From: Candidatus Kaiserbacteria bacterium
Lineage (GTDB): Bacteria; Patescibacteriota; Minisyncoccia; Phycocordibacterales; UBA2100
Direction of reading: 5' to 3'
Assembly (NCBI GenBank): GCA_016214605.1
Contig: JACROD010000005.1
Location: 6,108 to 70,107 of the forward strand
Length of the DNA: 64,000 nt
Made by a program: the position numbers and the translations under genes. Every line of letters starts with the position of its first letter. The first letter of the stretch is position 1. This document shows positions 4,667 through 64,000 of the stretch, piece after piece. Under the pieces are notes generated by a model. The model had not been told where the DNA came from and made no database searches. It was given only the letters and a program-made list of their open reading frames with translations.

Positions 4667-4671
4667 AGAGA

Positions 4672-10256: not shown

Positions 10257-10350
10257 GGGTACACAATACCTTATGGATGTCTCGGCGGGAATACGGTTTG
10301 GGGATAAAGTTGGAGTTTATTGTGTAGGTAGCCGTTCAGCGCAAGAGCTA

Positions 10351-14076: not shown

Positions 14077-14119
14077 CAGGAGTACGCGTGAGTTGGGGAT
14101 AATCCTTATGTTCTGATGC

Positions 14120-15255: not shown

Positions 15256-15276
15256 AGTTTAACTGCAAACTTAAAA

Positions 15277-36339: not shown

Positions 36340-36509
36340 GCACTGCAGTATATACGAGAAAGGTCCGCACGTCATACAGGCGAGATAACCCTGTGGATAG
36401 CACATCAAGATATCGGGACCTAGGCGAGATCCGAGGCACTCACATGTCTCGTTATGTCAGCCGCTACGATTCTAAGACCATTAAAAAATCGTCCTTCCGA
36501 GATATTATT

Positions 36510-49342: not shown

Positions 49343-49425
49343 GGGAGATATGCTAACAGACTCACGAGGACTGCGCCAGCAGCACAACCGAATTGTTAAA
49401 GCAAAGCGAATATTTTATGAAAAGT

Positions 49426-51282
49426 CTAGACCGAGGTCTTTTGGAGGGTGGCGATGCGCGCGAGATATGAATCAGGGTTTTCGAGCATCTGGGCCGGGGC
49501 GCCTTCTTCGGCGAGATGACCGCTGTCGATCACCACTATCTTGTCGGCGTCGAGAATAGTAGAGATGCGGTGAGCGATGACGACGAGCGTGATCCCGCCG
49601 CGGAGATTGGCGATCATCTGCTGGATGTCGCGCTCGAGCTCCGAATCGAGCGAGCTCGTGACCTCGTCGAGCACGAGCACTTGCGGCTTGCGCGCCAAGG
49701 CGCGCGCGAGCGAGATGCGCTGACGCTGACCTCCCGAGATCGTCACACCACGATCGCCGAGTACCGTGTCGAATCCTTGCGGCAAGCGCATGATGTCGTC
49801 GTGGATGTGCGCGAGCTGCGCTGCAAGCTCGATATCCTCACGAGAAATGGACTCGTCGAAGAATCGGATATTGTCGAGCACGGATGCATTCATAATGAAA
49901 GCATCCTGCGATACATACGCGATCGCCGCGCGCCACTCCTTGATACTCACCTCGCTCGTCGAGACCCCATCGACTCGTATCTCGCCATGAGTAGGCGCAA
50001 AAAGGCGCAAGATGAGATCCGCGACCGTCGTCTTGCCCGAGCCCGACGGCCCGATGATACCTACAAAAGAGCCCTTTTTGATATCAAATGACACATCCTC
50101 AAGCTGATTCGACTTGCCCTCGTATCCAAATGTCACATGATCAAAAGAGAGCCCATCCTCAAACACAAAAGGATTGGTGCCCTTGGATGCCGCTTCATGG
50201 TTGCGCGCGACCTCTTTCTTGAAAGCGGCAATATTATCGGCAAAAGGAATGAACTGGAGGATCGATTGGAATGAGGCTTGTGTCGAGCTGATGTAATTAA
50301 ATATCTTTTGGATCAAATAGACCGTAGCCGCAAAGCTCGCGACCTGAAAAGTACCTGAGAAGTACGAAAAAGCGAAAATACCGATAACAAATATAAGCGC
50401 AAGCGGTTGGATATATACAGATCCAATCCCCTGGTTAAAATAGGTCTTCGCGAGAGCATGCTCAAGTCGCCCAATATATTCACTCCCCTTGTTTGCAATG
50501 GAATCTCCTGCCCCCGATGCCTTCACCTGCTTGAATCCCTGGATACTCTCACTGATGTGGTGCGACAAAAGTTTCTCTGTCGTAGCGACCACCTGCGAAT
50601 GAGCATGTGTCCGCCTGAGAAGCGGCCGAAAAAAGACGATCACGATAGTACCGACCGCGACAGTCGCCCATGTGATCAGTGGAGAGATATTGATAGCCAC
50701 AAGCAGATACATAAAGGCACCTGTCGTTGATTGCAAGAATTGAACAATACCGTCGAGGAGCTGGGTCTCACGTCGAGCGTCCCAAAAGATCGTATTCTGC
50801 AGATCGCCGCTTTTTTGACGCAATATGTACGGCCAGCTCGCGTGCATGGTACTGCGAAAAAGCGAGTCGATCTCGCGTGCCATGAAGCGCGCACTGATCC
50901 ATGAGCGCACATAGGTAAATGCCGTGAGTACGACCGATCGCGCCAAAAAGATGAGCATAATGAAGACAAGGAGGTAGCGGAAGGTAAACGGAACTCCCAC
51001 GAGTCCAAAGAGTCGCGCCATTAGCTGAGTGATCGTATCGAGCGGCCCCGACTGCCCTCCCATTACGAAAGATACGAGAGGAATAACCGCGTTGATACCA
51101 ATACCATCGAGTGCGGCACTCAACACAGCCAGCCCTGCAAGCAAGACCATATATCGACGATAGCCATGAAATGTTTTTCCTAAGACTTTAAGAATCCGCA
51201 ACGCGCCACGCGGCGAATAAGGCTTGGGGAGATCCCTATCGTCGCCCTCAGGGCGCACCTTAGACGACATTATGCCTGCCAT
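49426..51282 (-). CDS. ABC exporter with fused permease and ATPase (MsbA/lipid-A-flippase-like).
   Basis: 618 aa. A six-TM N-terminal domain is present. Walker A is GPSGSGKTT, the ABC signature is LSGGQRQRISLARAL, and Walker B is VLVLDEVTSSLD. Confidence 0.9.
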   Translation of the reverse strand: MAGIMSSKVRPEGDDRDLPKPYSPRGALRILKVLGKTFHGYRRYMVLLAGLAVLSAALDGIGINAVIPLVSFVMGGQSGPLDTITQLMARLFGLVGVPFTFRYLLVFIMLIFLARSVVLTAFTYVRSWISARFMAREIDSLFRSTMHASWPYILRQKSGDLQNTIFWDARRETQLLDGIVQFLQSTTGAFMYLLVAINISPLITWATVAVGTIVIVFFRPLLRRTHAHSQVVATTEKLLSHHISESIQGFKQVKASGAGDSIANKGSEYIGRLEHALAKTYFNQGIGSVYIQPLALIFVIGIFAFSYFSGTFQVASFAATVYLIQKIFNYISSTQASFQSILQFIPFADNIAAFKKEVARNHEAASKGTNPFVFEDGLSFDHVTFGYEGKSNQLEDVSFDIKKGSFVGIIGPSGSGKTTVADLILRLFAPTHGEIRVDGVSTSEVSIKEWRAAIAYVSQDAFIMNASVLDNIRFFDESISREDIELAAQLAHIHDDIMRLPQGFDTVLGDRGVTISGGQRQRISLARALARKPQVLVLDEVTSSLDSELERDIQQMIANLRGGITLVVIAHRISTILDADKIVVIDSGHLAEEGAPAQMLENPDSYLARIATLQKTSV

Positions 51283-51324
51283 AATTGGGCATTATACATC
51301 ACCACAAACCTAAAGATACAAAAA

Positions 51325-51351
51325 ATCTCACGGAGTAGCGGTCCGTGAGAT
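51325..51351. promoter_or_regulatory. Perfect 10-bp-stem hairpin atctcacgga-gtagcgg-tccgtgagat. On the minus strand it is followed by U6, i.e. terminator-like in the 5' leader of the ABC exporter gene.
   Basis: Read from the sequence. It sits between divergent genes (ABC start 51282, plus-strand gene start 51373). Confidence 0.4.
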
Positions 51352-51372
51352 TAGGTATTAATATACACACGT

Positions 51373-52434
51373 ATGTTCAATAATGTCTCGAAATGGCGTA
51401 CCAGTACCAGGAGATTCATCGCCTCCATGCAACATCGCATCAGATACCTACTCAATAAGATGCGGCATGAGCTTTTTTTGCGCGCACTTGCGTTCGCAGA
51501 GAGAAAGAGTGGCAGGTTTATTACATTCCACACCCGCCCGATTTACTCAAAAGACATCGTGCACGTCGCAGATACACTCGTCCACACACCCTCATGCGCG
51601 ATCGTCTTGCAAGGACCGATACTCAAGAAATACGACTTTACACTGGAGACGATCCGTACCTATAAAAAAGTCTATCCGATGCTCACGATCATCCTTTCGA
51701 CGTGGGAGGACGAAGACCCTGTGTATCTCGAAAAGATCCGCGACGAAGGTATTGAGATCGTCCTCAACAAAAAACCCGCATATAATGGCCCGCGCAACGT
51801 GAACATGCAGATCGTCTCTGCTCGCAACGGCATCAAACGAGCCAAAGACCTCGGAGTACCGTATGTCATCAAAAGCCGCACCGATCAGCGCATGTACAAC
51901 AAAAACATCATTGAGACCCTCTACAATCTCATACAATATTTTCCTCCGGGTGAGCGTTCCAAACAAAATAAAAGAATCATATTCGGTCACAACACGCCGA
52001 AGTATCAGCCATATGTTTTTTCCGATATTTTCATATTTGGCGATATAGATGACATGGTGGAATATTGGGATACCGATCTAGTAGAAAAAGATGCGCAATA
52101 TCCTGTCTTCATTGCGGAAATGTATCTCGCCTACTCATACCTCAAACGCAAGGGTTGGCCGATGACTTGGTCAATACAGGCGATGTGGGAGATCTATCGC
52201 GAGTGCATCATCACGATCGACTGGACAGAAATAGATCTCTTTTGGCTCAAGTATGATTATTTTTGGGAACGGCATTTCTGGGAGCACAAACATCGATACA
52301 ATCAAAAAAACACACCTTCAACAGATCACTTACATTTCCATGATTGGTTCAACATATACAGCGATATGGAAAATAAGGTCATAACTTCGCAACATGAAGG
52401 ATTCATACGTATGCAAGTCCCCGAAAAACGATAA
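51373..52434 (+). CDS. Hypothetical protein, possibly a WavE-like polysaccharide/LPS biosynthesis protein. Low confidence.
   Basis: 353-aa ORF. Segments IVLQGPILKKYDFTLETIRTYKKVYPMLTIILSTWEDE are reminiscent of the WavE family. No firm motif is present, and the real start may be an internal Met. Confidence 0.3.
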   Translation: MFNNVSKWRTSTRRFIASMQHRIRYLLNKMRHELFLRALAFAERKSGRFITFHTRPIYSKDIVHVADTLVHTPSCAIVLQGPILKKYDFTLETIRTYKKVYPMLTIILSTWEDEDPVYLEKIRDEGIEIVLNKKPAYNGPRNVNMQIVSARNGIKRAKDLGVPYVIKSRTDQRMYNKNIIETLYNLIQYFPPGERSKQNKRIIFGHNTPKYQPYVFSDIFIFGDIDDMVEYWDTDLVEKDAQYPVFIAEMYLAYSYLKRKGWPMTWSIQAMWEIYRECIITIDWTEIDLFWLKYDYFWERHFWEHKHRYNQKNTPSTDHLHFHDWFNIYSDMENKVITSQHEGFIRMQVPEKR

Positions 52435-52475
52435 ACAAAAGACAGCGCCAAGCGGCGCTGTCTTGATTGAAGCAT

Positions 52476-53120
52476 TCATGCCCCAAAATGTTTGAGCCCT
52501 TCACGAGCCCACTCGACGAGATCAAGCGGGAGGTCTGGCTGCGAATCGCAGTAGCCCTTGGTCGACCAATCGGCAAGTTTCACCAACTCTTCAAGAACTT
52601 CCTTCACATGTGATGGGTTATCGGGATCGAAGGGATCGGGCATGCAGATCAACTGCTCTCGGGCGGCAAACCCCTTTTCATCTCGAGCGATCTTCTCATG
52701 CGTCGCCCACACCCGACGAGCCTTGCGAGGATGCAGTACCAAGATAAGATCGGAATCTAAACCCTCGCTTCTGATCATATCGATCCCGAAACGAGAATTT
52801 TCAGCGCCATTGCGTGCCTCTGCCTCGACATGGATGCGACTTGCGTCGATCCCGTGATGCTTGGTAAGCAGGTGTGCCTGGTACCGCGCCTCAGCACCAA
52901 ACCGTCGAGATTGTTCGCCCGAGTCCACACCGATACCGCCAGTGAGAAGGATCCAGTCGATCAACCCTCGCTCATAGAGCCTCGCCGCCGCTTGGGCCAT
53001 CCGTGAATCTTCGCGGCAGAATACGAACGCGCCCTTAGACCTCGTTAAGTTGGGATCGCCCGCACCACCGAGTCCCATAGCAAGGTATTCGGCCACTTTG
53101 AGAAGTTTCTCTTGTTCCAC
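52476..53120 (-). CDS. DUF218/YdcF (ElyC/SanA)-family protein.
   Basis: 214 aa. Segments ILLTGGIG...LILVLHPRKARRVWAT match the YdcF-like pattern (LVTSAYHMRRA equivalent). Confidence 0.55.
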   Translation of the reverse strand: MEQEKLLKVAEYLAMGLGGAGDPNLTRSKGAFVFCREDSRMAQAAARLYERGLIDWILLTGGIGVDSGEQSRRFGAEARYQAHLLTKHHGIDASRIHVEAEARNGAENSRFGIDMIRSEGLDSDLILVLHPRKARRVWATHEKIARDEKGFAAREQLICMPDPFDPDNPSHVKEVLEELVKLADWSTKGYCDSQPDLPLDLVEWAREGLKHFGA

Positions 53121-53237
53121 GTCCTATCCCCTTTCAAGTTTCAAGAAGTATTCTGGTGCTATGTAAGCACAGGAAAGTGTCTGTGTCAATTCCAAGATTT
53201 TTTGCGCCGATACTCCCTTCTTGCATGAACTGCCCTA

Positions 53238-54965
53238 TTGTTTATAGTGGACAAGATAACAACCCTACCCATGCCACGAACCATTACAGCCATCATACCG
53301 GCCGCGGGCAAACCGACCAACCGGATCCTGCAGAATTCAAATCTTCCCGACACGATGATACCCATCAACGGCAAACCGGTGATCGGCTATATTTTGGAAG
53401 ACCTGCTTTCCCGCAAGATCACTGATGCGGTGATCGTACTGAGCAAGGCCGACACTCATACTGAAAAATACGTAAACCATAAGTTTGCGAACAAGATCAG
53501 CTTGCGCTTCATATACACCGCACACAAAAGAGGTGTCGGCTATTCCATCTATCTGGCCGCAAAACACTTGGATCCGAAGCATGGCATCCTTATTTATTTG
53601 GGCGATACGATCTACAAAGGTCCGCTCAAACTCCAGGAAAATACATTGGTCGTGTCTGACCAATACGAAGAATCGCGAAAATGGTGTTTTGTAGAGAAAA
53701 ATGGCACGACAATGCGTTTCCTCAACAAACCCGACACTTACGAAGGCACCGGGAAGATCCTGTGCGGTATATACTACCTTGCCTCGGGCAAAAAATTTGC
53801 AAAGAGTCTGCAGATGGCAGAAAAATCGCACCCACACATAGAGCTCTCGCACATATTGGAAGCGTATCAGAAACAGCGCGAGACCTTTCGTCTGGTCAAT
53901 GCCGTCAAATGGTACGACTGCGGCAACATCGAGAATTATTACGCCGCACGAGTCGATTTCTTACGATTGCGTAATTTCAACAAGCTCGACTACAATGCCA
54001 CGACAGGCGTCATCACCAAGTCGAGCGCAAACACCGAGAAGATCTGCCAAGAGATCAACTGGTTCCTCAATACTCCGGACAACCTTAAGGCACTGACCCC
54101 CCGCCTACTCGATCATGGCATCAACAAGGATCATGCTTACTACTCTATGGAGTACTACGGCTATCAGTCTTTGGCCGATATCTATTTGCACGCCCATCAA
54201 GATCTCGCGGTGTGGAGATCGATCTTGCGCCATATATTCTCGGTGATCGAACTTTTCAAAGAACATCCGGGACGGGTGCCATTGAGTGCATCTACCGATA
54301 TGTACGTAGACAAGACGCATGCGCGCATAAAAAGCCTGTGCGAGACTAAGGGATGGAAAGACCTCCTCTCGCTCCCGGAAATACAGATCAACGGACAAGT
54401 CTATAAAAATGTCGACCATTACCTGCCGCTATTGTCCGAGCGCATAAAAGATCTACACAAACAGCAGGACATGACCTTTATCCACGGCGACCTTTGTCTC
54501 AGCAATATTCTCTACGACACATCGAGCCGACTGATCAAACTGGTCGACCCGCGAGGATCTTTCGGTAAGCTCGGCGTATACGGCGATATCAAATACGACC
54601 TTGCAAAATTACGACACAGCTTCGACGGAAATTACGAATTCATAATTTCAGACCTCTTCAAGCTAGAAGAGCCCGCTTTTGGAGAATTCAGCTACCAGGT
54701 CTACACCGACGAACACCATGACCGCCTCTCTGCCCTCTTTGATGACATTCTCGCAAAGGCGGGTTATAGTCTCGATGACATCAAGCTCATTGAAGCGCTC
54801 CTGTTCGTCTCGATGATCCCCCTGCATCAGGGCGAACCACAGCGCCAAAAGGCCATGTATGTCACCGGTGTCAAGTTACTCGATCAAGCTTTTCCAACCC
54901 ATGCGAATCCTCATCGACCTCGACGGGACCATCTGCGAACTCCGCAAAAAGGGCCAAGATTATAG
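53238..54965 (+). CDS. Bifunctional protein: an N-terminal sugar-phosphate nucleotidyltransferase fused to a C-terminal APH/choline-kinase-fold sugar kinase (AmgK/MurU-like or LicA/LicC-like fusion).
   Basis: 575 aa. The nucleotidyltransferase N-terminus is AIIPAAGKPTNRI...MIPINGKPVIGYILEDL. The kinase Brenner motif is IHGDLCLSNILY with the downstream D.K/D region. The 3' tail (HANPHRPRRDHLRTPQKGPRL) overlaps the next gene. Confidence 0.6.
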   Translation: MFIVDKITTLPMPRTITAIIPAAGKPTNRILQNSNLPDTMIPINGKPVIGYILEDLLSRKITDAVIVLSKADTHTEKYVNHKFANKISLRFIYTAHKRGVGYSIYLAAKHLDPKHGILIYLGDTIYKGPLKLQENTLVVSDQYEESRKWCFVEKNGTTMRFLNKPDTYEGTGKILCGIYYLASGKKFAKSLQMAEKSHPHIELSHILEAYQKQRETFRLVNAVKWYDCGNIENYYAARVDFLRLRNFNKLDYNATTGVITKSSANTEKICQEINWFLNTPDNLKALTPRLLDHGINKDHAYYSMEYYGYQSLADIYLHAHQDLAVWRSILRHIFSVIELFKEHPGRVPLSASTDMYVDKTHARIKSLCETKGWKDLLSLPEIQINGQVYKNVDHYLPLLSERIKDLHKQQDMTFIHGDLCLSNILYDTSSRLIKLVDPRGSFGKLGVYGDIKYDLAKLRHSFDGNYEFIISDLFKLEEPAFGEFSYQVYTDEHHDRLSALFDDILAKAGYSLDDIKLIEALLFVSMIPLHQGEPQRQKAMYVTGVKLLDQAFPTHANPHRPRRDHLRTPQKGPRL

Positions 54966-55974
54966 CGACGTGCGGATCAATCCGCAGGCCGTGGAACGAT
55001 TACGCACACTCAAAGCTGCCGGACACTACATCATCCTTCAGACGGCCCGCCATATGAAGACCTGCAGTGGCGATCAAGGACAGGTCGTCGCCAAGATCGG
55101 CAAAAAGACTCTGGACTGGCTCGCTCGGCATGAGATCCCCTACGACGAGATCTACTTCGGCAAACCGTATGCTGATGTGTATCTCGACGACAACGCACGC
55201 ACTTTTATATCATGGGAAGATATCAGTGCGCCTGAGTGGGATACAGAGCGCGTCAATATCCTGATCCCAATGGCCGGGCGGGGTTCACGATTCGCACAAG
55301 CAGGATTCACCGATCCCAAGCCTTTGATACCGACCCATGGCGCCACCATGGTGGAGTGGGCCATGAGGTCATTTGATTTTCTCAAACAGATCAAACGATA
55401 CAAGCTAATCTTCATCATTCTCAAGGAGCACGACGAGAAATACAAATTATCTACAGAGCTCAAAAGAAAGTTCGGTCAAGATACTGTGGTCATTGCGATC
55501 GATGAAGTAACGCGCGGCCAGGCCGAGACCTGCCTCGCTGCCACATCCCACATAGACAACTACAACCAACTCTTCATCTACAACTGCGATACCTATTCGA
55601 CCAGCAAGATCTGGGATCTGATCCAAGAAGAAAAGCCTGATGGCGTCATCCCTGTGTTTACTGCGACCGACCCGCGCTACAGCTATGCCAAAGTGGACGA
55701 GTACGGCTACGTACAACAAACAGCAGAGAAGAGGGCCATCTCGGACCAAGCCTCCACCGGCATGTACTATTTCAAACGCGGATCCGATTTTGTGAGAGCC
55801 GCAGAAAAGATGATCGCCACAGGCGAAATGCACAACGGCGAATTCTACGTGATCCCCTGCTACAATGAGCTTCTAAAGTCCGGCAAAAATATCCGCACCA
55901 TCCCCGTCGATGATTACTGGGTACTCGGGACCCCTGAAGAATTGGAAACATTTAACAAAAATTTTAAGGGCTGA
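54901..55974 (+). CDS. Bifunctional HAD-superfamily phosphatase (N-terminal, DxDGT motif) fused to a sugar-1-phosphate nucleotidyltransferase.
   Basis: The track ORF starts at 54859. The probable start is MRILIDLDGTICE at 54901, where HAD motif I sits at the N-terminus. The nucleotidyltransferase motif is ILIPMAGRGSRFAQAGFTDPKPLIP. Confidence 0.6.
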   Translation: MRILIDLDGTICELRKKGQDYSDVRINPQAVERLRTLKAAGHYIILQTARHMKTCSGDQGQVVAKIGKKTLDWLARHEIPYDEIYFGKPYADVYLDDNARTFISWEDISAPEWDTERVNILIPMAGRGSRFAQAGFTDPKPLIPTHGATMVEWAMRSFDFLKQIKRYKLIFIILKEHDEKYKLSTELKRKFGQDTVVIAIDEVTRGQAETCLAATSHIDNYNQLFIYNCDTYSTSKIWDLIQEEKPDGVIPVFTATDPRYSYAKVDEYGYVQQTAEKRAISDQASTGMYYFKRGSDFVRAAEKMIATGEMHNGEFYVIPCYNELLKSGKNIRTIPVDDYWVLGTPEELETFNKNFKG

Positions 55975-56074
55975 AATTCTCCCTGCATCTGATACAGCGC
56001 ACTGGTCGTGCCTTGAAGATACGGTGTCGCCTCAAACGTACAACTCATTTTCACTGGAGTTTTTGTTTGTAAGA

Positions 56075-56103
56075 AATCCCTGCCGAGAGACCCGGCAGGG
56101 ATT
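56075..56103. terminator. Hairpin atccctgccg-agagacc-cggcagggat (10-bp stem) between convergent gene ends.
   Basis: Read from the sequence. Flanking U/A tracts are imperfect. Confidence 0.35.
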
Positions 56104-56123
56104 GGATGGAATAGATCGATCAT

Positions 56124-57137
56124 TCACTTCAACCATTGATCGAGCCTATTCAGAAGCACCGCCTGTGTCGGGTCGAGCGAGATGAAGATCGCACCCACTA
56201 CGATGACCATCGATAGCAGGATGCGCCGCTTGCCAGATTTTTCACCAAGCAACCACACCGCACCCACCGCGACAAACACCAACGACAAACGCTTCAAACT
56301 TCCAATGGAAGCAATCGGTGCAAGTCGATATGACACCCCTAGAAGAATAGATGGTAATCCGAATACGATTCCCATTATTATCATGCGATACAAGTGTGAC
56401 TGTAATCGCTCCATGAAAGGACCTGTGGATCTCTCATCATGCGCTTGATTAGGCACGCAAATCAGAAAGACTCCGCCGAGTACTCCATATTGGATCGTGA
56501 CCGCCAAGATCATGTCGCCGTGACGCGCAATGAGCCCGTCTCCCAACAGCCCCATCGTACTACAACAGGCAGCTAAATACGCCCATCGCAACGCGCGAAT
56601 ATCATTCCGCTCGGCTTCTGGAAATCTCTCTAGTGACGAAAATATTCTCCAAAAGAATAACGGCATGAAATACGCTTGCCATGAAGCCCCTTCACGCACA
56701 TGCACAAAGGTACCGATCGCGACAATGATAATACCAACGATCCCCCACGCGCCCGGACGCTCTCCGATAAGTATCGTAGTGATCATGATCAACCCGGGAG
56801 TCATTGCACCAATGGGAGCAATGAATGAGGTTTCAGCAAGCCTTGCCGAGCGCATATTGGCGAACTGAATGATCACATTGAATACCGTCGTCAATATGAG
56901 TCCGAACACCCACACTGGTAGATTTGCCTCCTCGATGGCCAGAGTATTCCACCACGGACCTATGACGATAAGGGATAGGAAACATAAGACCGCAGCGATC
57001 ACACATTGCCCCACGAGCAACTCTTTCTCAGTAAATATCCCCAACATTAGAAGATACTTACGGTAAAGGAACGTCGCCGCTATGGGAAATATCGCGACGA
57101 TCGTCAGAACAAGCGCTAGATTATTCACGATGCACAC
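56124..57137 (-). CDS. DMT-superfamily (EamA-like) transporter with 10 TM helices.
   Basis: 337 aa. The hydrophobic profile is that of duplicated EamA-like halves. It is adjacent to the nonulosonic-acid genes. Confidence 0.6.
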   Translation of the reverse strand: MCIVNNLALVLTIVAIFPIAATFLYRKYLLMLGIFTEKELLVGQCVIAAVLCFLSLIVIGPWWNTLAIEEANLPVWVFGLILTTVFNVIIQFANMRSARLAETSFIAPIGAMTPGLIMITTILIGERPGAWGIVGIIIVAIGTFVHVREGASWQAYFMPLFFWRIFSSLERFPEAERNDIRALRWAYLAACCSTMGLLGDGLIARHGDMILAVTIQYGVLGGVFLICVPNQAHDERSTGPFMERLQSHLYRMIIMGIVFGLPSILLGVSYRLAPIASIGSLKRLSLVFVAVGAVWLLGEKSGKRRILLSMVIVVGAIFISLDPTQAVLLNRLDQWLK

Positions 57138-57176
57138 CTCCCGTCACTTATTCACTGATGGACAGTATATACGAAA

Positions 57177-57917
57177 TTAGCCATTCGTCAAGTTTTGTTG
57201 TCCTATTTGTAGCATCTTCATCTTCACCTCAGCTACAAGCCAATCTTCCTGCGTGTCGATGTCCATGGCGTATTTGTTGTCCATCTCATACCCATAGGTG
57301 CTGTTCCCCCACAGACTATTATTACCATCAAATAAATTACTGTACCTAAACGCGTATATTGCGGAATTAATGAAATACGATTCCGGCACATCTTGGTTGC
57401 GATGTATGAGATTGCGCAAGATCGCGCCGTCACCTACCCGTGTGACCACTCCCTGTTCATCTCGTGCCAATTGCTTGAGATGGCTAAAGTGACCCGGCAC
57501 TTTTGAGATGCCGACCAGTGAATCAAAATTGTTTCTCTCCTTGAGGAGTTGCGCCACCTCTTTGATGTGAAATGATTGACGCCCCGGAGACGACGGCTCG
57601 AGGAGGATAATCCAATCGGGCACATATCCGTCGATTTCTTTGAGTTTTTGGACGGCATACACAATGACGTCAAAGATACGAGCGGTGTCGCTCGCCAATT
57701 CCGCAGGCTCCATAAACGGAACTTCTATTCCGGCTTGTTCTGCCATCTTCGCAATTGCCGGACTATCGGTCGAGAGCACGAAGCGATCGAAGACACCACC
57801 GGCTATGCCGGTCTGTATGGACCATGTAATAAGCGGCTTCCCCAAAAAATCTTTTATATTTTTCCCAGGCAAGCGTTTACTGCCGCCACGCGCCACGACT
57901 AAACCTAGAATTTTCAT
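57177..57917 (-). CDS. neuA: Acylneuraminate (nonulosonate) cytidylyltransferase, a CMP-NulO synthetase.
   Basis: 246 aa. The N-terminus LVVARGGSKRLPGKNIKDFLGKPLI is typical of the CMP-NeuAc/CMP-Kdo synthetase family. Confidence 0.8.
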   Translation of the reverse strand: MKILGLVVARGGSKRLPGKNIKDFLGKPLITWSIQTGIAGGVFDRFVLSTDSPAIAKMAEQAGIEVPFMEPAELASDTARIFDVIVYAVQKLKEIDGYVPDWIILLEPSSPGRQSFHIKEVAQLLKERNNFDSLVGISKVPGHFSHLKQLARDEQGVVTRVGDGAILRNLIHRNQDVPESYFINSAIYAFRYSNLFDGNNSLWGNSTYGYEMDNKYAMDIDTQEDWLVAEVKMKMLQIGQQNLTNG

Positions 57918-58276
57918 GCTTTCGAAGTATTACGTATCATGATATCGACAAGTGTATTATCCGCCGCAACCACAGGAACGAGGTTGAAGCCTACATGATC
58001 GCCAAATATCTTTTCTGCCTCCGCTTCTTTGTTGATCGTATCCGGAAGTACGACACTATTCGTATTCACTAATTTCATGATGGGTGTAAGCATGGTTGCT
58101 CCCTTGAGCATGGCACGACGCACATCACCATCAGCAACAATGCCGTAAACTATATTTCGATCATCCACAACAATTACGGCACCGTGCTTGTTCTCGGTGA
58201 TACAGGTCAGAGCATCAGCGATCGTGCCATCTGAACTCATGAAAAAATTTGGGTATGCGGAGAGTTTGTTTTTCAT
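57914..58276 (-). CDS. CBS-pair domain protein (120 aa). It overlaps the neuA-like gene by 4 nt.
   Basis: Two CBS-like motifs are present. CBS modules accompany nucleotidyltransferases in legionaminic-acid-type clusters (PtmE-like). Confidence 0.65.
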   Translation of the reverse strand: MKNKLSAYPNFFMSSDGTIADALTCITENKHGAVIVVDDRNIVYGIVADGDVRRAMLKGATMLTPIMKLVNTNSVVLPDTINKEAEAEKIFGDHVGFNLVPVVAADNTLVDIMIRNTSKA

Positions 58277-58285
58277 ACCTTTATA

Positions 58286-59452
58286 TTAGTACATAATTTT
58301 CTTAACCAATAATGTTTCACTGACGGGAGTCTTCGCGATGATATCTACAATACGCTTAGCAGATTTACCATCGCCGTAGGGATTCACACAATTCTTAAGC
58401 GAACGCTTGAATTCTTTTGAGAGAGCTTTCGCTATAGCATTCTGTATTTCCTTCCTCACATATCCTGCATTAATCACGTTCTTACCTTGAAGACGGCCAC
58501 GTTCCCGATTACCGATATTGACCGCTGGCAGTTTGAAAGACGGGGCCTCGAGGATGCCGGAGGAGGAATTACCCACCAACACATCGGCACTCGCCATGAG
58601 ACCTGCATAATCTTCGCGTGCGAGGTTAGGAAAGATTCTCATTGAAGGAGTGCGGTGTTCGTGTATCGCCTTTGTCACGAGATTACTGCCAGCATCAGAG
58701 TTATTGAGCACAATGACAACGTTTGCATCAAATTGCTTTACTGCCTCGAGCGTCTCTTTCATTTGCTCACCTGCGCGCTCAAACTCTTCCGTCACGGGAT
58801 GTTGTGCAACCACAATGAGTGGTTTGCCATTGTCAGGAATTCCCAACTTCTTAAAAAGCTCTTTCTTGGGGGTCACCTTCCCACCCAAAAGATCATCGAG
58901 CTGCGGCGCACCAACATTATGTATACGGAAGGGTTCTTCTCCCATTTTTTTTACGCGACGAGCGGCATCTTCGTTGGCCGCAAAATGTAGGTGAGCGAAT
59001 TTTGTGATGGCATGACGAGTGACACCATCGATATTTCCGGAAACCTCGCCTGATTGAATGTGGCCCACGGGCAAATAGAGATGTGCGCCGACAATAGCCG
59101 CAATTAACTGTTCACCACGATCCCCGCCAACAAGGACAAAGTCGGCCTGCATGCCATGAAGAATCTCCGGTAATTGGAGCATAAATATAGAAAGAGACTT
59201 CGCCATCGTAAGTCGACTGTATCCGTCTAGGGTATTGTGTACGACCGCATCAATTTTAAAGCCCTCGCGACGTATTTCATCGATGGAGGAACCGAATCGA
59301 TCCAGGAGATGCATATTGCTCACAATGATGCCATAGTCGAGATCCGGGTGTTTTTCAATCTCACGGATTATAGGCTGATAGTAGCCCCACTCCCCGCGCG
59401 ACCCGGCTACGATTGCAATCTTTAGCTTCTTTTTTGCCTGTTTTTTAGCCAT
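58286..59452 (-). CDS. neuC: UDP-N-acetylglucosamine 2-epimerase, hydrolysing type (NeuC/LegG-like).
   Basis: 388 aa. Segments VGGDRGEQLIAAIVGAHLYLPVGHIQSGEVSGNIDGVTRHAITKFAHLHFAAN match the NeuC family. Confidence 0.85.
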   Translation of the reverse strand: MAKKQAKKKLKIAIVAGSRGEWGYYQPIIREIEKHPDLDYGIIVSNMHLLDRFGSSIDEIRREGFKIDAVVHNTLDGYSRLTMAKSLSIFMLQLPEILHGMQADFVLVGGDRGEQLIAAIVGAHLYLPVGHIQSGEVSGNIDGVTRHAITKFAHLHFAANEDAARRVKKMGEEPFRIHNVGAPQLDDLLGGKVTPKKELFKKLGIPDNGKPLIVVAQHPVTEEFERAGEQMKETLEAVKQFDANVVIVLNNSDAGSNLVTKAIHEHRTPSMRIFPNLAREDYAGLMASADVLVGNSSSGILEAPSFKLPAVNIGNRERGRLQGKNVINAGYVRKEIQNAIAKALSKEFKRSLKNCVNPYGDGKSAKRIVDIIAKTPVSETLLVKKIMY

Positions 59453-59545
59453 GTTTCAGTACTGTACAATAATATTTAGAAATACGCAAGACATTCGATT
59501 TGGACTCTCTTACACGATCTCACGATGTTCTTTTCGCTACGAATC

Positions 59546-60598
59546 TTAGCTCAGATCGTCCCACTGTACGATATCATTGACCACCAAATCATGCCTTGCT
59601 TTCTTGCCAAGCAATGCTTTTGAATACATCGGGTCAAGATACTTCGCGGGAATACCGGAACCAGGCCTTTTGGGCATCAGATTTTCAAGGGATAGTTCTT
59701 CTCCTGCTTTAATATCGCGCGATGCGATCACGCTATGAAATGCCCAATCGCGAACGACTTGTTCTTCTTTTGAAATAGTCTTTTCAGACCCAAGCCCAAC
59801 TTCTATTTTGCGTATCCCATCAACAAGCTCCTTGAGCATATGTGGCTCCAGCGAAATGAAATGATCAGGACCCTTTTGGTTTCGATCAAGTGTAAAATGC
59901 TTTTCGACTACTTTTGCGCCGAGCGCCACTGAAGCGTACGCAGTGTAATTATCCATCGTATGATCGCTTTGACCCACCATCACTCCGAATCTATCCTGGA
60001 GTACTTTAATGAGACCTAGATTGGCATGTGAATAATCATTCGGCGGATACTCAGACGTACAGTTGGTAAGCACAAGATTGTCCTTAGCACCTTCTTCTTC
60101 ATAGACCTTGACGGTATCGACTATTTCTTCGATCAAACACATGCCGGTGGACACAATGACAGGCTTCCCGGTCGCCTTTGATATCTTGGCAAGTTTGCGA
60201 TGATGCGGGAGATTCATGATCTCTCCAGAGCCAGTCTTAAAGGCCTTGACTCCCAGATCATTAAGGACGTCGACCGCGGTCGGGCAAAAAGGCGTACAAA
60301 GGTATTCAATACCGACCTGTTCGCAGTATGCCATCATCTCTTTGTGCATTTCTGGTGTAAAGAGATTACGTTTGAGTATCTCGTAGAGATCGCCGTCCCA
60401 CATATGCACCTTCCCAGGAACCATCTCAATATCAGGTAGATGGATCTGAAACTTAGCAACATCTGCCCCCATCTCCTTTGCCGCATCAACGAGTTTCTTG
60501 GCCGTCTCGATGCTACCGTTATGAGAATCTGCCAGCTCGGCGATAATAACAGTCTTCGGTCCGCCGATAATTAATTTACCAAAATTGAGTTGTTTCAT
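59546..60598 (-). CDS. neuB: N-acetylneuraminate (nonulosonate) synthase, NeuB/LegI/PseI family, with a C-terminal SAF domain.
   Basis: 350 aa. Segments IIAELADSHNGSIETAKKLVDAAKEMGADVAKFQ...KTGSGE...QSDHT match the NeuB TIM-barrel. The C-terminal antifreeze-like domain is present. Confidence 0.85.
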   Translation of the reverse strand: MKQLNFGKLIIGGPKTVIIAELADSHNGSIETAKKLVDAAKEMGADVAKFQIHLPDIEMVPGKVHMWDGDLYEILKRNLFTPEMHKEMMAYCEQVGIEYLCTPFCPTAVDVLNDLGVKAFKTGSGEIMNLPHHRKLAKISKATGKPVIVSTGMCLIEEIVDTVKVYEEEGAKDNLVLTNCTSEYPPNDYSHANLGLIKVLQDRFGVMVGQSDHTMDNYTAYASVALGAKVVEKHFTLDRNQKGPDHFISLEPHMLKELVDGIRKIEVGLGSEKTISKEEQVVRDWAFHSVIASRDIKAGEELSLENLMPKRPGSGIPAKYLDPMYSKALLGKKARHDLVVNDIVQWDDLS

Positions 60599-60672
60599 AT
60601 ACAGATAGTATATACATGGCTCATCAGGATAACAATAGAAAGAGGCGCATGTATGAAGTGCGCCTCTGGTAG

Positions 60673-61401
60673 TCAGCGATTAAAATTGCCACCATCTACG
60701 ATAATGTCCGTCGCATTGATCGCGGGATTGGTTGCGATCAACATAACCACTGATGCAACTTCTTCGGTCGTTATCGAGCGACCAAGCAGTGACTCGCTAC
60801 ATGCCTCCTTATATCCATTCGGGTTGGTCGTCAGCATAGGCGTGTCGATCGCACCAAGAGTCAACGCAACCGAACGAATCGGCCGAACATCCGGATGAAA
60901 TGCCCAGGAACGGGAAAGTGCCATTAACCCTCCCTTACTAGCCGTATACGCCTGTGCATAAGGCAACTTACCATATGCCCATATAGACGAGCTTGTGATG
61001 ATGCAACTTACTTCAGATCGCACCATATGAGGAACGGCATGTTTGACGAAGAGCACTGCACCCTCAAGATTCACGGACATCACGCGCCGGAAATCATCCA
61101 GATTCACATCGAGCGGACCTTGACAGACCACCGAGCGTCCTTCGATGAAGTCGGCACTTGCGCCAATACCGTGATTAATGAAGAGTACATCAATCGGACC
61201 AAAGCGATCAGTCGCCGCTTTCACAATCCTCTGTACATCTTCCTCACTACTCGCATCACCCTTTACGAGGTGGTGATCTTGCTCGATTGGCGTACGAACA
61301 TCAGTGATGGTCACTGAAAATTCGCTCCTTTCGAACAAATCCGCGGTCGCGAGACCAATGCCGCCAGCACCGCCAGTAACAAGGATATGTTTCTTTTTCA
61401 T
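60673..61401 (-). CDS. Short-chain dehydrogenase/reductase (SDR).
   Basis: 242 aa. The TGGAGGIG Rossmann motif and the YTASKGG (YxxxK) catalytic motif are present. Confidence 0.8.
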   Translation of the reverse strand: MKKKHILVTGGAGGIGLATADLFERSEFSVTITDVRTPIEQDHHLVKGDASSEEDVQRIVKAATDRFGPIDVLFINHGIGASADFIEGRSVVCQGPLDVNLDDFRRVMSVNLEGAVLFVKHAVPHMVRSEVSCIITSSSIWAYGKLPYAQAYTASKGGLMALSRSWAFHPDVRPIRSVALTLGAIDTPMLTTNPNGYKEACSESLLGRSITTEEVASVVMLIATNPAINATDIIVDGGNFNR

Positions 61402-61476
61402 GGGATAGCCTTTCTCAGTTTTTCTAAATAATATTGTATATTATATATCGAAATAAGTCAATAGGCATCAAAAATC

Positions 61477-62442
61477 CTATATCGGTCTTTGGAGGAAAAA
61501 ACAAGCTTGATCCCCTCTCTGATTTGCGTTCAATTCTCTTGCTCGCGCCTCAAATGCGGCAATTTTCTCAGTCGAGAATATTGAATGAGTGGGATCAATC
61601 TTGTACGAGCGCGGGTCCACAAGCGGGATATCCCGCTTATATTGTTCACTTCCCCAAAATTGAAATCCCCTGGAATCAAAAACGACATCGGTCGTTTCAA
61701 ATCCGACCTCGTCCGCAAGGATCTTCATACTCTTCTGTGTATGCACTATGAGGTGACGCGGTGGGTCCAGGTCTACCCAATTCTCGCGGTACTTCTCCCA
61801 AGCCTCTGATGAAGCAACGGGAATACGGATCAGCACATAATGCCCCGGCTTGATCAGACGATATAGATTCTTAAGGACCGCGCGAGAATCAGCCATATGC
61901 TCAAATGCATGATGAAGCATGATGAAGTCGAATGATTCAGTGAGGTCTGCGAGATCTTGTTTTTTGATCCTGACCCCGCTCGGATATGCGATGTCCGCCT
62001 CTATAAAAGGATCGATTCCTCGGAGGTTTGTAAATCCGTCTTTTGCCAATGCCTGAAGAAATGCGCCCGTACCGCAACCAACATCCAAGATCGAAGAATT
62101 GAGGCCGACATTACGCTTGCCGAGCCATGCATACCACTGCGGCAGACCGTACCACTTGATAAAAAGGAATCCGATCGGATTTTTCTTGTAGAGCGCATAC
62201 CGCGCACGCTGTCGTTTGAGGAAGAGTTTTAGGCCACTGTCTTTCTGGGGAGTAGTTGTATCAAATGAATAGTATTCGGGCGGATAGTATCGACCCAGGT
62301 CCGCTGGAACTTCACTTATTTGGACACATCCGCATGAGGCACACTCGATATACTTAAACTCATCGCGTGTACCAAACATCATTTCGCGTACCTGATATTC
62401 TCTATTTCCGTCACTGTTGTGACATACGCGACAAGCCATCAT
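61477..62442 (-). CDS. Class I SAM-dependent methyltransferase with an N-terminal CxxC...CxxC zinc ribbon.
   Basis: 321 aa. CRVCHN...CASCGC precedes the ILDVGCGTGAFL SAM-binding motif I. Confidence 0.75.
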   Translation of the reverse strand: MMACRVCHNSDGNREYQVREMMFGTRDEFKYIECASCGCVQISEVPADLGRYYPPEYYSFDTTTPQKDSGLKLFLKRQRARYALYKKNPIGFLFIKWYGLPQWYAWLGKRNVGLNSSILDVGCGTGAFLQALAKDGFTNLRGIDPFIEADIAYPSGVRIKKQDLADLTESFDFIMLHHAFEHMADSRAVLKNLYRLIKPGHYVLIRIPVASSEAWEKYRENWVDLDPPRHLIVHTQKSMKILADEVGFETTDVVFDSRGFQFWGSEQYKRDIPLVDPRSYKIDPTHSIFSTEKIAAFEARARELNANQRGDQACFFLQRPI

Positions 62443-62482
62443 TCGTGCTATTTTAGCAATTACACGACTCTTGGCAACAAGA

Positions 62483-64000
62483 CTATTTTAATTGGGCATG
62501 TTTCTCAGCCAACGTACGCACAACATCCGCAAGACGCTCAGACGACTTGCCATCAAAAGAATAATTATGACTCATGAATGTCTTCGCCCCCTCGACGAGA
62601 GATCGACGTTTCTCCGGAGATGTTGCAAGCGTGAGTAGCTCATGGGTCAGTTGCTCTACGTTGTACGCAATAGCAAGAGCCCCTTCCTGCGCATATCGAT
62701 CGAGGTCACTGCCTATGTCTTTACCAAGTACTGCATGCATTGGAAGTATTGCATCATAGACGGTCGGCCTGCCAGATATAAGTGCTTCAAGAACCGATGT
62801 GGAGTGACATGACACAATCGCATCCGATTGGACAAAGATATCTACTAGGGATTCATTGTGAGCAACTCGATAATTCACATTAACAAAAGCGCGCTGTATC
62901 GCTTCTCGGAAAAATGCCTCATTATCTGCACCCCCACGCATTGAAAGTATGATTTTTGCATTAGGTACTCCCAATACTGCCGTAGCGATATCTTGAAGAA
63001 AGTCAAAGGCCTCATAGTGATCGGTCCAGAAAGCACGAGCTATCCCCGGCATAATACATGCGATCACGAACTCACTATCTTGAACATCAATCTTTTCAGA
63101 ATCTGGGATTCTTGCAAACTTGTCAAAACGAGGTGAGCCCACATCAAAAAGCTGATCATCCCTGTAGCCTATCCGCTTGAAGCTCTCTCGAAGGACCGGT
63201 CCATATTCTGCTATGTATTCAACGCTACGTCGGTTGCTATAAGAACCTTTTCCGAAATAAAAAATACCGTGTTGCACTTCAAGAGACGGAATACTAAGCA
63301 AACGCGCAACCTCGCACAATATGCCGAAGTGCGGCTGACCAGATGCGCTCGCACGCACAAGGACAACATCAGGTCGTAAATAGCGCATTATTGCATGCGC
63401 CCCTTCGATCATTTCCACTGATTTGATGCCTCCTGTAGAAATAATGCGCTCAAAAGCCTCCTGTAGGACAGGAGTGAGCGAGTATCCCCGGAATGAAGTC
63501 TTATTAATCAGGTGATTTTTAAATCTGATGCGCTCCCATTCGTCCCTAAATTCACGATCACGCGATACAGCCAAACGGTGCATACCACGCGATACAAATT
63601 GATCAATGTGCATAAACTGCATACGATGTTTCCAGATCAAACGCAGTCCGACCGAAAAAGACTCCAGTCTATCCATGAGCACCAGTTCACCTTCTGGAAG
63701 TTTGTCCATGAGAGGCGCTATATTTCTCCAAATGTCACTTCCCAGAATACGTATCTTTTTACGCGGTCGCAGTGTAGTTACACATATATTAAGTAAAGAA
63801 AGTGCTACACCAAACATGCGACGCTTCCACCAAAACATTTTCCACCTGAATGAATCCAGGACCACCCGTACGCGAAACTTCTTTTCACTAAGCGCGCCTT
63901 TTTCCACAAAAAATTCAATATTCCGCTGCTTACAAACAAGCCCTGCCGCGATTTCAACCACGCGCGCTTCAAGGCCCGCCAAGAGCCGCCCTGTTTCTGG
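62483..64000 (-). CDS. Glycerophosphotransferase/capsule-polysaccharide-type transferase (TagB/TagF or KpsC/KpsS-like). The N-terminus is probably beyond the window end.
   Basis: The track ORF starts at a TTG at 63982, but the frame stays open to 64000. The C-terminal segment LSMRGGADNEAFFREAIQRAFVNVNYRVAHNESLVDIFVQSDAIVSCHSTSVLEALISGRPTVY resembles Glyphos_transf/capsule-synthesis families. Confidence 0.4.
   Translation of the reverse strand, partial: PETGRLLAGLEARVVEIAAGLVCKQRNIEFFVEKGALSEKKFRVRVVLDSFRWKMFWWKRRMFGVALSLLNICVTTLRPRKKIRILGSDIWRNIAPLMDKLPEGELVLMDRLESFSVGLRLIWKHRMQFMHIDQFVSRGMHRLAVSRDREFRDEWERIRFKNHLINKTSFRGYSLTPVLQEAFERIISTGGIKSVEMIEGAHAIMRYLRPDVVLVRASASGQPHFGILCEVARLLSIPSLEVQHGIFYFGKGSYSNRRSVEYIAEYGPVLRESFKRIGYRDDQLFDVGSPRFDKFARIPDSEKIDVQDSEFVIACIMPGIARAFWTDHYEAFDFLQDIATAVLGVPNAKIILSMRGGADNEAFFREAIQRAFVNVNYRVAHNESLVDIFVQSDAIVSCHSTSVLEALISGRPTVYDAILPMHAVLGKDIGSDLDRYAQEGALAIAYNVEQLTHELLTLATSPEKRRSLVEGAKTFMSHNYSFDGKSSERLADVVRTLAEKHAQLK

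Follow-up and report, generated by a model that had tools for sequence, protein, structure and literature searches.

The DNA analysed here, referred to as the window, is a 64,000-nucleotide stretch of contig JACROD010000005.1 (positions 6,108 to 70,107, forward strand) from assembly GCA_016214605.1 of a Candidatus Kaiserbacteria bacterium, a member of the candidate phyla radiation (CPR). Its last part carries two sets of carbohydrate genes. Unit A is a minus-strand operon for a nonulosonic acid (NulO, a sialic-acid-type sugar). Unit B (51373-55974, plus strand) is a predicted sugar-activation module that contains two fusion genes, open reading frame (ORF) 1 and ORF2. The genes of Unit B and then of Unit A are as follows.

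51373-52434, plus strand: WavE-family protein (PF07507, 64.4 bits, cut-off 27).
53271-54965, plus strand: ORF1, an N-terminal RmlA-fold domain and a C-terminal APH-fold kinase domain (Pfam NTP_transferase and APH).
54901-55974, plus strand: ORF2, a HAD phosphatase (residues 1 to about 100) and a sugar-phosphate nucleotidyltransferase (residues about 120 to 357) (TIGR01689-like and NTP_transferase).
56124-57137, minus strand: EamA/DMT transporter with 10 transmembrane segments, the final gene of the operon (PF00892, 34.9 bits).
57177-57917, minus strand: NeuA-type CMP-nonulosonate synthetase (PF02348, 74.5 bits).
57914-58276, minus strand: stand-alone CBS-pair protein of 120 residues (PF00571).
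58286-59452, minus strand: NeuC-type hydrolysing UDP-HexNAc 2-epimerase (TIGR03568 and PF02350).
59546-60598, minus strand: NeuB-family nonulosonate synthase with a SAF domain (PF03102 and SAF).
60673-61401, minus strand: classical short-chain dehydrogenase/reductase (SDR; adh_short_C2, 124 bits).
61477-62442, minus strand: class I S-adenosylmethionine-dependent methyltransferase with a Cys-rich N-terminal segment (Methyltransf_23, 88.2 bits).
62483-64000, minus strand: TagF-like GT-B transferase, of which the C-terminal 505 of 650 residues lie in the window (identical to residues 152-650 of protein P0361).

The ten ORFs from ORF1 to the window end were confirmed on the strands given to them in a first-pass annotation of this DNA, two on the plus strand and eight on the minus strand. 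The eight minus-strand ORFs begin at 56124 and run to the window end with spacings of −4 to 93 nucleotides. The plus-strand pair spans 53238 or 53271 to 54965 (ORF1) and 54859 or 54901 to 55974 (ORF2). The pair had been placed directly upstream of the operon, but the two groups are convergent, with the 3’ ends of ORF2 and the EamA gene facing each other across 149 nucleotides. The WavE gene is 0.8 kb upstream of ORF1. For each of ORF1, ORF2, and NeuB, there is an NCBI protein of 100% identity. No tRNA genes or Rfam features were found in the window, and promoter and terminator scans gave signals no better than those of shuffled sequence. The GC content of 49426-64000 is 48.4%, compared with 54.8% across the remaining window, which is consistent with a variable glycan island. 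With moderate confidence, the region is regarded as a lower-GC surface-glycan island of the Kaiserbacteria genome.

The most likely start of ORF1 is position 53271, and the NCBI call is 564 residues. Homologues of ORF1 number 558 and are about 540 residues long. The C-terminal tail of the window protein, approximately 30 codons that are missing in homologues, overlaps ORF2 by 65 nucleotides and is the result of a lost stop codon. ORF2 most likely starts at 54901, giving a protein of 357 residues with the N-terminus MRILIDLDGT, and has 814 homologues of about 357 residues. A frameshift origin of the fusions or of the overlap was considered and rejected, since the homologues share these lengths and architectures and the overlap is a C-terminal extension. 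The nucleotidyltransferase-APH and HAD-nucleotidyltransferase fusions of the first-pass annotation, which had itself raised the possibility of frameshift artefacts, are therefore genuine.

The AlphaFold2 model of ORF1 has a predicted local distance difference test score of 92.4. The kinase domain retains an intact catalytic set composed of the beta3 Lys, the alphaC Glu, the HxD...N loop, and the Mg-binding Asp; residues K250, E261, H405-G-D407, N412, and D426 do not vary among the 53 family members compared. The N-terminal domain reads AAGKPTNRI...LPDTMIP instead of the canonical GxGTR...PK. Other family N-termini read CGGDINYSHLP...SNAMIP, and in enterobacterial ORF1-like proteins the NTP motif site is fully degenerate. 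The transferase domain of ORF2 has a canonical motif (MAGRGSRF...DPKPLIP), and its HAD domain has the motifs DLDGT, T, K, and DD. Among PDB entries, ORF2 matches 4evw (2.9e-31), 1xpj (1.8e-14), and 9iqw (3.8e-5). The HAD domain aligns to positions 3-101 of the 126 of TIGR01689 (EcbF/BcbF) with 70 bits and an E value of 1.7e-19, and misses the curated cut-off of 162 bits. It is homologous to the TIGR01689 family, as judged from this alignment, and is not a curated member. Many ORF2 homologues carry the JGI name ‘capsule biosynthesis phosphatase’.

The nearest characterised relatives of this pair are phage enzymes. In the part of PMC13326640 concerned with phage HY126, which summarises He et al. 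(Nat Chem Biol 2026), AfhE is described as a bifunctional D-arabinose-5-phosphate 1-kinase/UDP-arabinose pyrophosphorylase whose transferase is N-terminal and whose APH-like kinase is C-terminal. AfhF is described there as a Mg-dependent HAD enzyme converting arabinofuranose (Araf)-1,5-bisphosphate to Araf-1-phosphate. The route given is arabinose-5-phosphate to the 1,5-bisphosphate, then to the 1-phosphate, and then to UDP-Araf. The systems named in that part of the source are those of E. coli phage HY126, RB69 (gp51, gp52:53, and gp55), and DLP3 (gp81-83); RB69 gp52:53 and gp51 are the AfhE and AfhF equivalents and adjoin an arabinose-5-phosphate isomerase, and an isomerase is also reported at the DLP3 locus (PMC13326640). 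The locus of Mosigvirus phi25-307 has the order kpsF-like isomerase, 561-residue ‘bifunctional protein’, and small HAD.

The ORF1 family profile aligns with the Mosigvirus AfhE homologue over 487 columns (hhalign probability 99.0%, E value 4.6e-18), and the ORF2 HAD domain shares 29% identity with the phage HAD (E value 4e-10). The ORF1 AlphaFold model retrieves full-length two-domain phage proteins from BFVD at a template modelling score of 0.65, together with RB69ORF052c and RB69ORF053c, which are both halves of a split gene. Cell and phage thus share a transferase plus APH-like kinase protein beside a small 1xpj-like HAD phosphatase, and ORF1 appears to be an AfhE-like component with predicted anomeric kinase activity on a sugar phosphate.

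There are also differences. Identity between the phage enzymes and Unit B is only about 20%. In the Mosigvirus and Enterococcus phage 9183 proteins, the GxG(T)R loop and the lysine of PK are canonical (GAGLATRL...PK or AAGRGTRM...PK), and there is no second transferase. The cellular ORF1 family and ORF236 of phage phiRSL1 lack these motifs, and a canonical transferase is adjacent (the C-terminal domain of ORF2 in the window, where it is fused to the HAD, and ORF235 in phiRSL1). Because the motif-less ORF1 types pair with an adjacent canonical transferase, the ORF1 N-terminal domain is most readily seen as degenerate or sugar-phosphate-binding, with nucleotidyl transfer shifted to the ORF2 domain. 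No homologue of the phage arabinose-5-phosphate isomerase was found in the window (best E value 0.86) or at 80 module loci described below, and the cellular modules lie in surface-glycan rather than DNA-modification loci. In the proposed sequence of steps, the ORF1 kinase would phosphorylate the anomeric hydroxyl of a sugar phosphate to give a bisphosphate, the HAD domain of ORF2 would remove the distal phosphate, and the canonical nucleotidyltransferase domain would form the NDP-sugar. On balance, Unit B is judged to activate a sugar other than that of Unit A by this phage AfhE/AfhF-type route.

The same chemical logic is known from heptose activation. In the ADP-heptose (HldE and GmhB) and GDP-heptose (HddA, GmhB, and HddC) pathways, an anomeric kinase acts on a sugar phosphate and is followed by a HAD phosphatase and a nucleotidyltransferase. 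HddC is among the weak structural and sequence matches of the module. The heptose pathways differ in using ribokinase or GHMP kinase folds, whereas the ORF1 kinase is protein-kinase-like, and Unit B lacks a GmhA-type isomerase and any sequence-level membership of these pathways.

Several phage neighbours of ORF1-like genes are annotated as ‘phosphoheptose isomerase’. These were rejected as a clue to heptose because the name belongs to the small HAD gene and is wrong. The misnamed gene lies at 4654-5040 in locus L084, at 4435-4791 in locus L086 (Synechococcus phage S-SKS1), and in NC_055907 (Enterococcus phage 9183). At 2059-5597 of the S-SKS1 locus, a 4evw-like transferase is fused to an annotated 3,4-dihydroxy-2-butanone-4-phosphate synthase, and this fusion is followed by a kinase-only protein, the small HAD, and a transaldolase.

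Two other functions for ORF1 have to be weighed against an AfhE-like role. The first-pass annotation described ORF1 as an AmgK/MurU- or NahK-like salvage kinase. That description is not supported: neither AmgK nor NahK is among the PDB matches to the kinase-domain profile, the best of which is APH at a marginal E value of 0.01, and the nearest characterised relatives are the phage enzymes. The Foldseek search of ORF1 against PDB was dominated by RmlA-type matches to the N-terminal domain.

The other function is that of LicC and LicA, in which ORF1 would phosphorylate and cytidylylate a small alcohol (choline, ethanolamine, or a glycerol-like compound), which the TagF-like protein would then attach as a phosphodiester decoration. 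S. pneumoniae LicC is the top single PDB sequence match of the ORF1 N-terminus (E value 5.5e-4), one homologue is named ‘choline kinase’ by JGI, and a TagF-like transferase is present in the island. The LicC match is marginal, however, and does not stand above GalU and GlmU. No HAD phosphatase and no second transferase would be required in a kinase and cytidylyltransferase route, the TagF-like gene sits in the Neu operon and its family is tied to NulO transfer, and the full-length homology is to AfhE, a sugar-phosphate enzyme. A LicC/LicA-like function is considered exceedingly unlikely.

The AfhE-like module of Unit B belongs to a large family of uncharacterised sugar-activation modules. The ORF1 family is present in at least 556 species, including members of the CPR, Bacteroidota, Chloroflexota, Myxococcota, Planctomycetota, DPANN, and other archaea. 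Neighbour counts were made in 80 loci kept from a scan of a genome collection, with nearby defined as within 10 kb. A 4evw-like transferase lies directly downstream of ORF1 in 75 of these loci and a 1xpj-like HAD in 62. The module order is invariably ORF1, HAD, and nucleotidyltransferase. The HAD and the transferase are fused in the CPR and are separate genes in other lineages. Homology, domain architecture, gene order, motif states, and distribution, here as elsewhere in this report, were read directly from the sequences. The remaining neighbours of the module are generic to glycan loci and include glycosyltransferases of families GT4 and GT2, acetyltransferases, flippases, and Wzy. To our knowledge, no biochemical function has been assigned to this module in cells, and literature searches found none.

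The WavE-family protein is a candidate glycosyltransferase for the activated sugar of the module. WavE-like genes lie beside the module at seven of the 80 loci (CPR, Chlorobi-like, and Gemmatimonadetes), and two further copies are present on a Citrobacter plasmid on which the module is located in an O-antigen-like cluster. E. coli ST131 plasmids likewise carry the module, there within a kps-type capsule cluster. Positions 900-12200 of one of these (L094, the IncF/IncY plasmid pMB9366_2) encode Stealth, TagF-like, HAD, ORF1-like kinase, 4evw-like transferase, and KpsC- and KpsS-like proteins. From its presence on this plasmid, the module is mobile in clinical E. coli. A second gene upstream of the module in the window was also found elsewhere:

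52476-53120, minus strand: DUF218 protein (PF02698, 38 bits).

In CPR loci L008 and L009, too, a homologue of this DUF218 gene is located upstream of the module.

The relation of the module to NulO synthesis can be assessed from the same loci. The first-pass annotation placed both units in one pathway, with ORF1 acting on a free hexosamine and, together with ORF2, supplying an NDP-hexosamine to NeuC and NeuB for a legionaminic-acid (Leg)-like NulO. The two units do lie side by side in one low-GC island, ORF1 does join an RmlA/MurU-fold domain to an APH-fold kinase, and NeuB-like and NeuA-like genes do occur near the module at 13 and 17 of the 80 loci, respectively. A NeuC-like gene, however, was found near only six modules and is missing from the other 74, and the NeuB-like genes near other modules are only 30-37% identical to the window NeuB and represent a different subfamily. 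Conversely, none of the six loci with close homologues of the window NeuB (L087-L092, described below) has an ORF1/ORF2-type module beside its Neu cassette. Salvage of a free sugar requires no phosphatase, yet a HAD gene accompanies ORF1 at most loci, and the nearest characterised relatives use a sugar phosphate. No Leg-type dehydratase or aminotransferase was seen. The fusion genes as a supply of NDP-hexosamine to NulO synthesis are thus not supported, and a single pathway is very unlikely.

For Unit A, profile searches bore out the clustering of neuB-, neuC-, and neuA-family genes with the CBS, SDR, methyltransferase, and DMT transporter genes on the minus strand. NeuC scores 398.6 bits against TIGR03568 (curated cut-off 235.9) and 256.7 bits against PF02350, compared with only 103.8 bits for WecB. 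NeuB scores 234.6 bits against PF03102 (cut-off 22.1) and 38.4 bits for the SAF domain (cut-off 21). NeuB is not a KDO-8-phosphate synthase, a possibility raised in the first-pass annotation. NeuB falls under both equivalog cut-offs (300.8 against 399.65 bits for TIGR03569 NeuB_NnaB, and 247.5 against 340.25 bits for TIGR03586 PseI), and PGAP annotates it as a ‘family protein’. Its top PDB match is N. meningitidis NeuB at 191 bits, with PseI at 161 bits. NeuA scores 142.9 bits for the PseF equivalog, under the cut-off of 205.7, and matches the CMP-Neu5Ac synthetases 6ifd (6.6e-30) and 1eyr (1.2e-22), with KdsB at 1e-9 or weaker. The top NCBIfam match of the CBS protein is the CBS part of KpsF/GutQ (2.1e-11).

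From these assignments, NeuC would hydrolyse and 2-epimerise UDP-HexNAc, NeuB would condense the product with phosphoenolpyruvate, and NeuA would form the CMP-sugar. The SDR, which has no equivalog-level NCBIfam match, and the methyltransferase are candidates for tailoring; the former may carry out a tailoring or epimerising step and the latter may O- or N-methylate the glycan or the NulO. No counterpart of the EamA gene was found at the 80 module loci or at the six Neu-cassette loci, and it is for this reason considered particular to the Kaiserbacteria genome. Judged by gene content, a Neu5Ac-type acid is the simplest assignment for the NulO, ahead of Leg and pseudaminic acid (Pse). The same three enzyme families are encoded in one operon in the CMP-Neu5Ac pathway of E. 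coli K1 and N. meningitidis, and the window NeuC passes its equivalog cut-off while the nearest solved relative of the window NeuB is the N. meningitidis enzyme. The window operon differs in that NeuB and NeuA are below their equivalog cut-offs, a CBS gene follows NeuC, and SDR, methyltransferase, and EamA genes are added. The operon is a NulO operon ordinary in kind, in an unusual CPR host.

The NeuB subfamily is tightly conserved, with homologues of up to 86% identity in Paceibacterota, Patescibacteria, and other environmental genomes. Six contigs with close NeuB homologues (L087-L092, CPR-like and marine) were compared. All six encode NeuA, NeuB, NeuC, and a CBS protein of 115-123 residues together, and in each of them (L087, L088, L089, L090, L091, and L092) the CBS gene is directly 3’ of NeuC. 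Identity to the window cassette is 78-82% for NeuB, approximately 62% for NeuC, 37-44% for CBS, and 51-65% for NeuA (the last in L087-L090). The CBS/NeuA pairing stressed in the first-pass annotation is therefore replaced by a conserved NeuC to CBS adjacency. By analogy with the feedback control of GNE, the CBS protein may be a regulatory, nucleotide-sensing partner of NeuC.

L087, with a NeuB of 82% identity, is syntenic with the window for the cassette, the Wzy_C-TPR gene, SecA, GatB, a helix-turn-helix (HTH) gene, and a giant ORF. It lacks the stretch from the ABC exporter gene through EamA, ORF1 and ORF2 included. Recurring cassette neighbours are methyltransferases, Glyphos_transf genes, a deacetylase and formyltransferase pair, and Wzy_C-TPR genes. 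Methyltransf_23 genes follow the cassette in L088 and L090 and are not close homologues of the window methyltransferase. L088 and L089 have a second Epimerase_2 gene.

The recurrence of the cassette bears on whether its product is of the legionaminic type (5,7-diamino), in which case NeuC would act as LegG and the dehydratase, aminotransferase, and acetyltransferase would be encoded beyond the window or elsewhere. The similarity of NeuC to A. baumannii LegG (5zlr, 191.5 bits) equals that to the human GNE epimerase domain (190.2 bits), NeuB and NeuA are below the Neu equivalog cut-offs, and the operon is interrupted by the window end. Against this, NeuB scores higher for NeuB_NnaB and N. meningitidis NeuB than for PseI. 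No Leg-type dehydratase, aminotransferase, or acetyltransferase was called in the window from 47 to 64 kb. In L087-L091, five of the six cassette loci, the 10 kb flanking the cassette on each side likewise gave no call of a 4,6-dehydratase or a DegT-type aminotransferase; L092 includes one gene, touching the end of the contig, that received no family assignment. The Leg/Ptm logic read into the operon earlier finds no support in this gene content, that of the operon being covered within the window only, and a legionaminic-type product is considered unlikely.

Two further features of the cassette loci were observed. Among the marine contigs L090, L091, and L092 (NeuB 78% identical), one locus has Neu genes in multiple copies, with three distinct NeuB genes, two NeuC genes, and several NeuA genes. 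Immediately upstream of the conserved cassette there, and also in L088 and L089, is a gene pair made up of Polysacc_deac_1 and Formyl_trans_N. The pair hints at N-deacetylated or N-formylated NulO variants.

The TagF-like gene is truncated by the window end, and its reading frame is open through base 64000. By itself, the window fragment has no Pfam or PDB match. The family has 685 representatives of about 620-640 residues, and its profile matches TarL, a teichoic-acid polymerase, at 7.3e-10 and KpsC at 0.01 in PDB. The earlier label of Tag/Kps-type transferase holds for the TagF/KpsC-like GT-B fold, while the gene itself is incomplete in the window. Among 36 family members, NF046086 (BFO_1060) is matched by 31, with a best value of 3.1e-15, and TIGR04396 by 24. 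One member, P0409 (877 residues), is extended at its C-terminus by CTP_transf_3, the domain of CMP-NulO/Kdo synthetases, and by this Rosetta-stone fusion the family is tied to CMP-activated sugars. In Tannerella, deletion of the TagB-like BFO_1060/Tanf_01245 strips the terminal Pse or Leg derivative from the O-glycan (PMC5420450). The T. forsythia NulO transferases (Tanf_01245/TFUB4_00887) resemble the window protein in being TagB-like GT-B proteins encoded with NulO genes. The window protein differs in its length of about 650 residues, with a long additional N-terminal region, and in its score of 19-20 bits against the NF046086 cut-off of 200. The Glyphos_transf genes that adjoin the cassette in L087 and L090 show no tblastn similarity to it. 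The TagF-like protein probably functions in NulO transfer, for which CMP-NulO would be the donor.

With the NulO assigned to Unit A, there remains the identity of the sugar activated by Unit B. Its substrate is probably a universal sugar phosphate, because no isomerase was found in the window or at the 80 loci and the module is frequent among lineages in which synthesis of 3-deoxy-D-manno-octulosonic acid (Kdo) is not expected. This bears on one candidate sugar, namely NDP-D-arabinofuranose made as by AfhE and AfhF from arabinose-5-phosphate, with the isomerase encoded elsewhere. Arabinofuranose is favoured by the full-length homology with the phage enzymes and by a shared HAD partner, the CBS protein is nearest to the CBS pair of the KpsF/GutQ arabinose-5-phosphate isomerases, and Gram-negative hosts of the module already make arabinose-5-phosphate for Kdo. 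On the other hand, no SIS-domain or isomerase homologue accompanies the module, whereas Mosigvirus phi25-307 has one beside AfhE and RB69 and DLP3 are reported to have one likewise. The module is common in the CPR, DPANN, and Chloroflexota, lineages that, as far as we know, are not expected to make Kdo. The CBS protein accompanies NeuC and not the module, and the phage enzymes are distant in sequence. Arabinofuranose is for these reasons rated as improbable.

The leading guess for the sugar, reached by analogy, is D-fructofuranose derived from fructose-6-phosphate. D-fructose-6-phosphate is D-arabino-configured, so that C1-C5 of the phage substrate are matched by its C2-C6. The steps would be fructose-6-phosphate to fructose-2,6-bisphosphate, then to fructose-2-phosphate, and then to NDP-fructose. 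The solved relatives of ORF2, 4evw and 1xpj, both come from V. cholerae, whose lipopolysaccharide (LPS) core contains fructose. WavE, named for the V. cholerae core cluster, co-occurs with the module in four distant lineages. TIGR01689, matched by the HAD domain of ORF2, is named after BcbF/EcbF of P. multocida. P. multocida capsules of types B and E have a fructose side chain that BcbE, BcbF, and BcbG are predicted to add, and bcbE and bcbG mutants lose the fructose (PMC13552107). BcbE and BcbG may be related to ORF1, the ORF2 C-terminal domain, and WavE, and the match of ORF2 to the BcbF/EcbF family lies well under its cut-off. A search for a link to the kfo genes of E. coli K4, made at the DNA level with an enterobacterial module in 5,426 genomes of the species, gave no match.

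It is tentatively proposed, as a possibility that may well prove wrong, that ORF1, ORF2, and WavE represent an undescribed and widespread cellular NDP-D-fructofuranose pathway. Its components would be a protein-kinase-fold 2-kinase, a HAD 6-phosphatase, a dedicated nucleotidyltransferase, and a WavE-type fructosyltransferase, with the ORF1 N-terminal domain a pseudo-enzyme and phage arabinosylation a derived branch.

Two genes at the low-GC boundary may complete the path of the glycan to the surface.

47108-49387, minus strand: Wzy_C membrane protein, O-antigen-ligase/O-oligosaccharyltransferase-like, with C-terminal TPR repeats (PF04932, 74.3 bits, and TPR families).
49426-51282, minus strand: half-size ABC exporter, HepA/MsbA/PglK-like (ABC_tran and ABC_membrane).

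In L087, the immediate neighbour of the Neu cassette is an orthologue of the Wzy_C-TPR protein (53% identity), and genes of this type also adjoin the cassette in L088 and L090. The Wzy_C-TPR protein probably performs the final transfer step of the island glycan. The ABC exporter scores 332 bits for HepA_fam, 279 bits for MsbA, and 189 bits for PglK, all under the NCBIfam cut-offs, and is a candidate flippase of a lipid-linked glycan. The two genes together are consistent with flipping and en-bloc transfer of such a glycan.

The reading favoured here is that Units A and B are functionally independent and probably feed one exported glycan; it is held with reasonable but far from complete confidence. 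Several observations weigh against it or its parts. The catalytic steps of both units, and with them the identity of the sugar, are all deduced from relatives at only 20-30% identity. The 17 loci with a NeuA-like gene and the 13 with a NeuB-like gene within 10 kb of the module leave room for some functional link between the module and NulO. The N-terminal loop of ORF1 keeps one Lys and one Arg, so its transferase domain may still be active, and the module on the Citrobacter plasmid has no 4evw-like transferase. NeuB and NeuA miss every curated equivalog cut-off, so that the NulO could differ from Neu5Ac. Outside the window are about 435 nucleotides of the final gene and as much as about 13 kb of contig, in which Leg-type genes may lie. 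The fructose proposal leans on the literature on BcbE, BcbF, and BcbG and, as background, on the presence of fructose in the V. cholerae core.

Elsewhere in the window, a giant ORF of 5,422 residues occupies 17309-33577 on the minus strand and is rich in Thr (16.5%), Gly (14.8%), and Ser (11.7%). It may be a target of the island glycan, as the first-pass annotation had suggested. Its N-terminus contains an HTH-like segment in two near-identical copies (KYISSKDAAALFGVTNDHISRLCRQKKIRGVVQDGLWLVD). Just upstream of it on the same strand, the ORFs at 34120-35031 and 35353-36408 both have an HTH_17 domain, and in L087 the giant ORF likewise follows an HTH gene. The GC content of 20001-22000, within the giant ORF, is 0.66 compared with approximately 0.55 around it. 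Long alternative-frame ORFs lie opposite it on the plus strand at 19419-22040, probably as a compositional or repeat effect. An IS200-like Y1 transposase gene (PF01797; 16496-17197, minus strand) adjoins the giant ORF.

The region 2262-16338 contains central-carbon genes for a PfkB kinase, a split transketolase (N- and C-terminal halves as separate ORFs), ribulose-phosphate 3-epimerase, RpiB, and GAPDH. This run is broken by two large surface-type proteins of 1,414 and 1,241 residues with PG_binding, Ig-like, and beta-helix domains. At 44126-47062 on the minus strand, between the IMPDH and Wzy_C-TPR genes, lies a gene for a secreted-looking protein of 978 residues with an LCAT/PGAP1-like alpha/beta-hydrolase (lipase) domain.

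Unit A shows an ultra-small bacterium of the CPR spending resources on a sugar of the sialic-acid type, by means of a cassette that recurs in the six related CPR-like and marine contigs compared, and the TagF-like family found with it may be a general NulO transferase. The sole characterised relatives of the Unit B module are phage DNA-arabinosylating enzymes reported in 2025-2026. Knowledge of the sugar of the module would annotate thousands of glycan loci and reveal the origin of the phage pathway, and it could answer the long-standing question of how bacteria activate fructose or another furanose for use in capsules and LPS. If the fructose reading is true, it would explain how Pasteurella, Haemophilus, E. 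coli K4, Vibrio, and Campylobacter incorporate fructose into capsules and LPS, and would imply a hidden, acid-labile fructosylation of surface glycans in the CPR, DPANN, and many other phyla.

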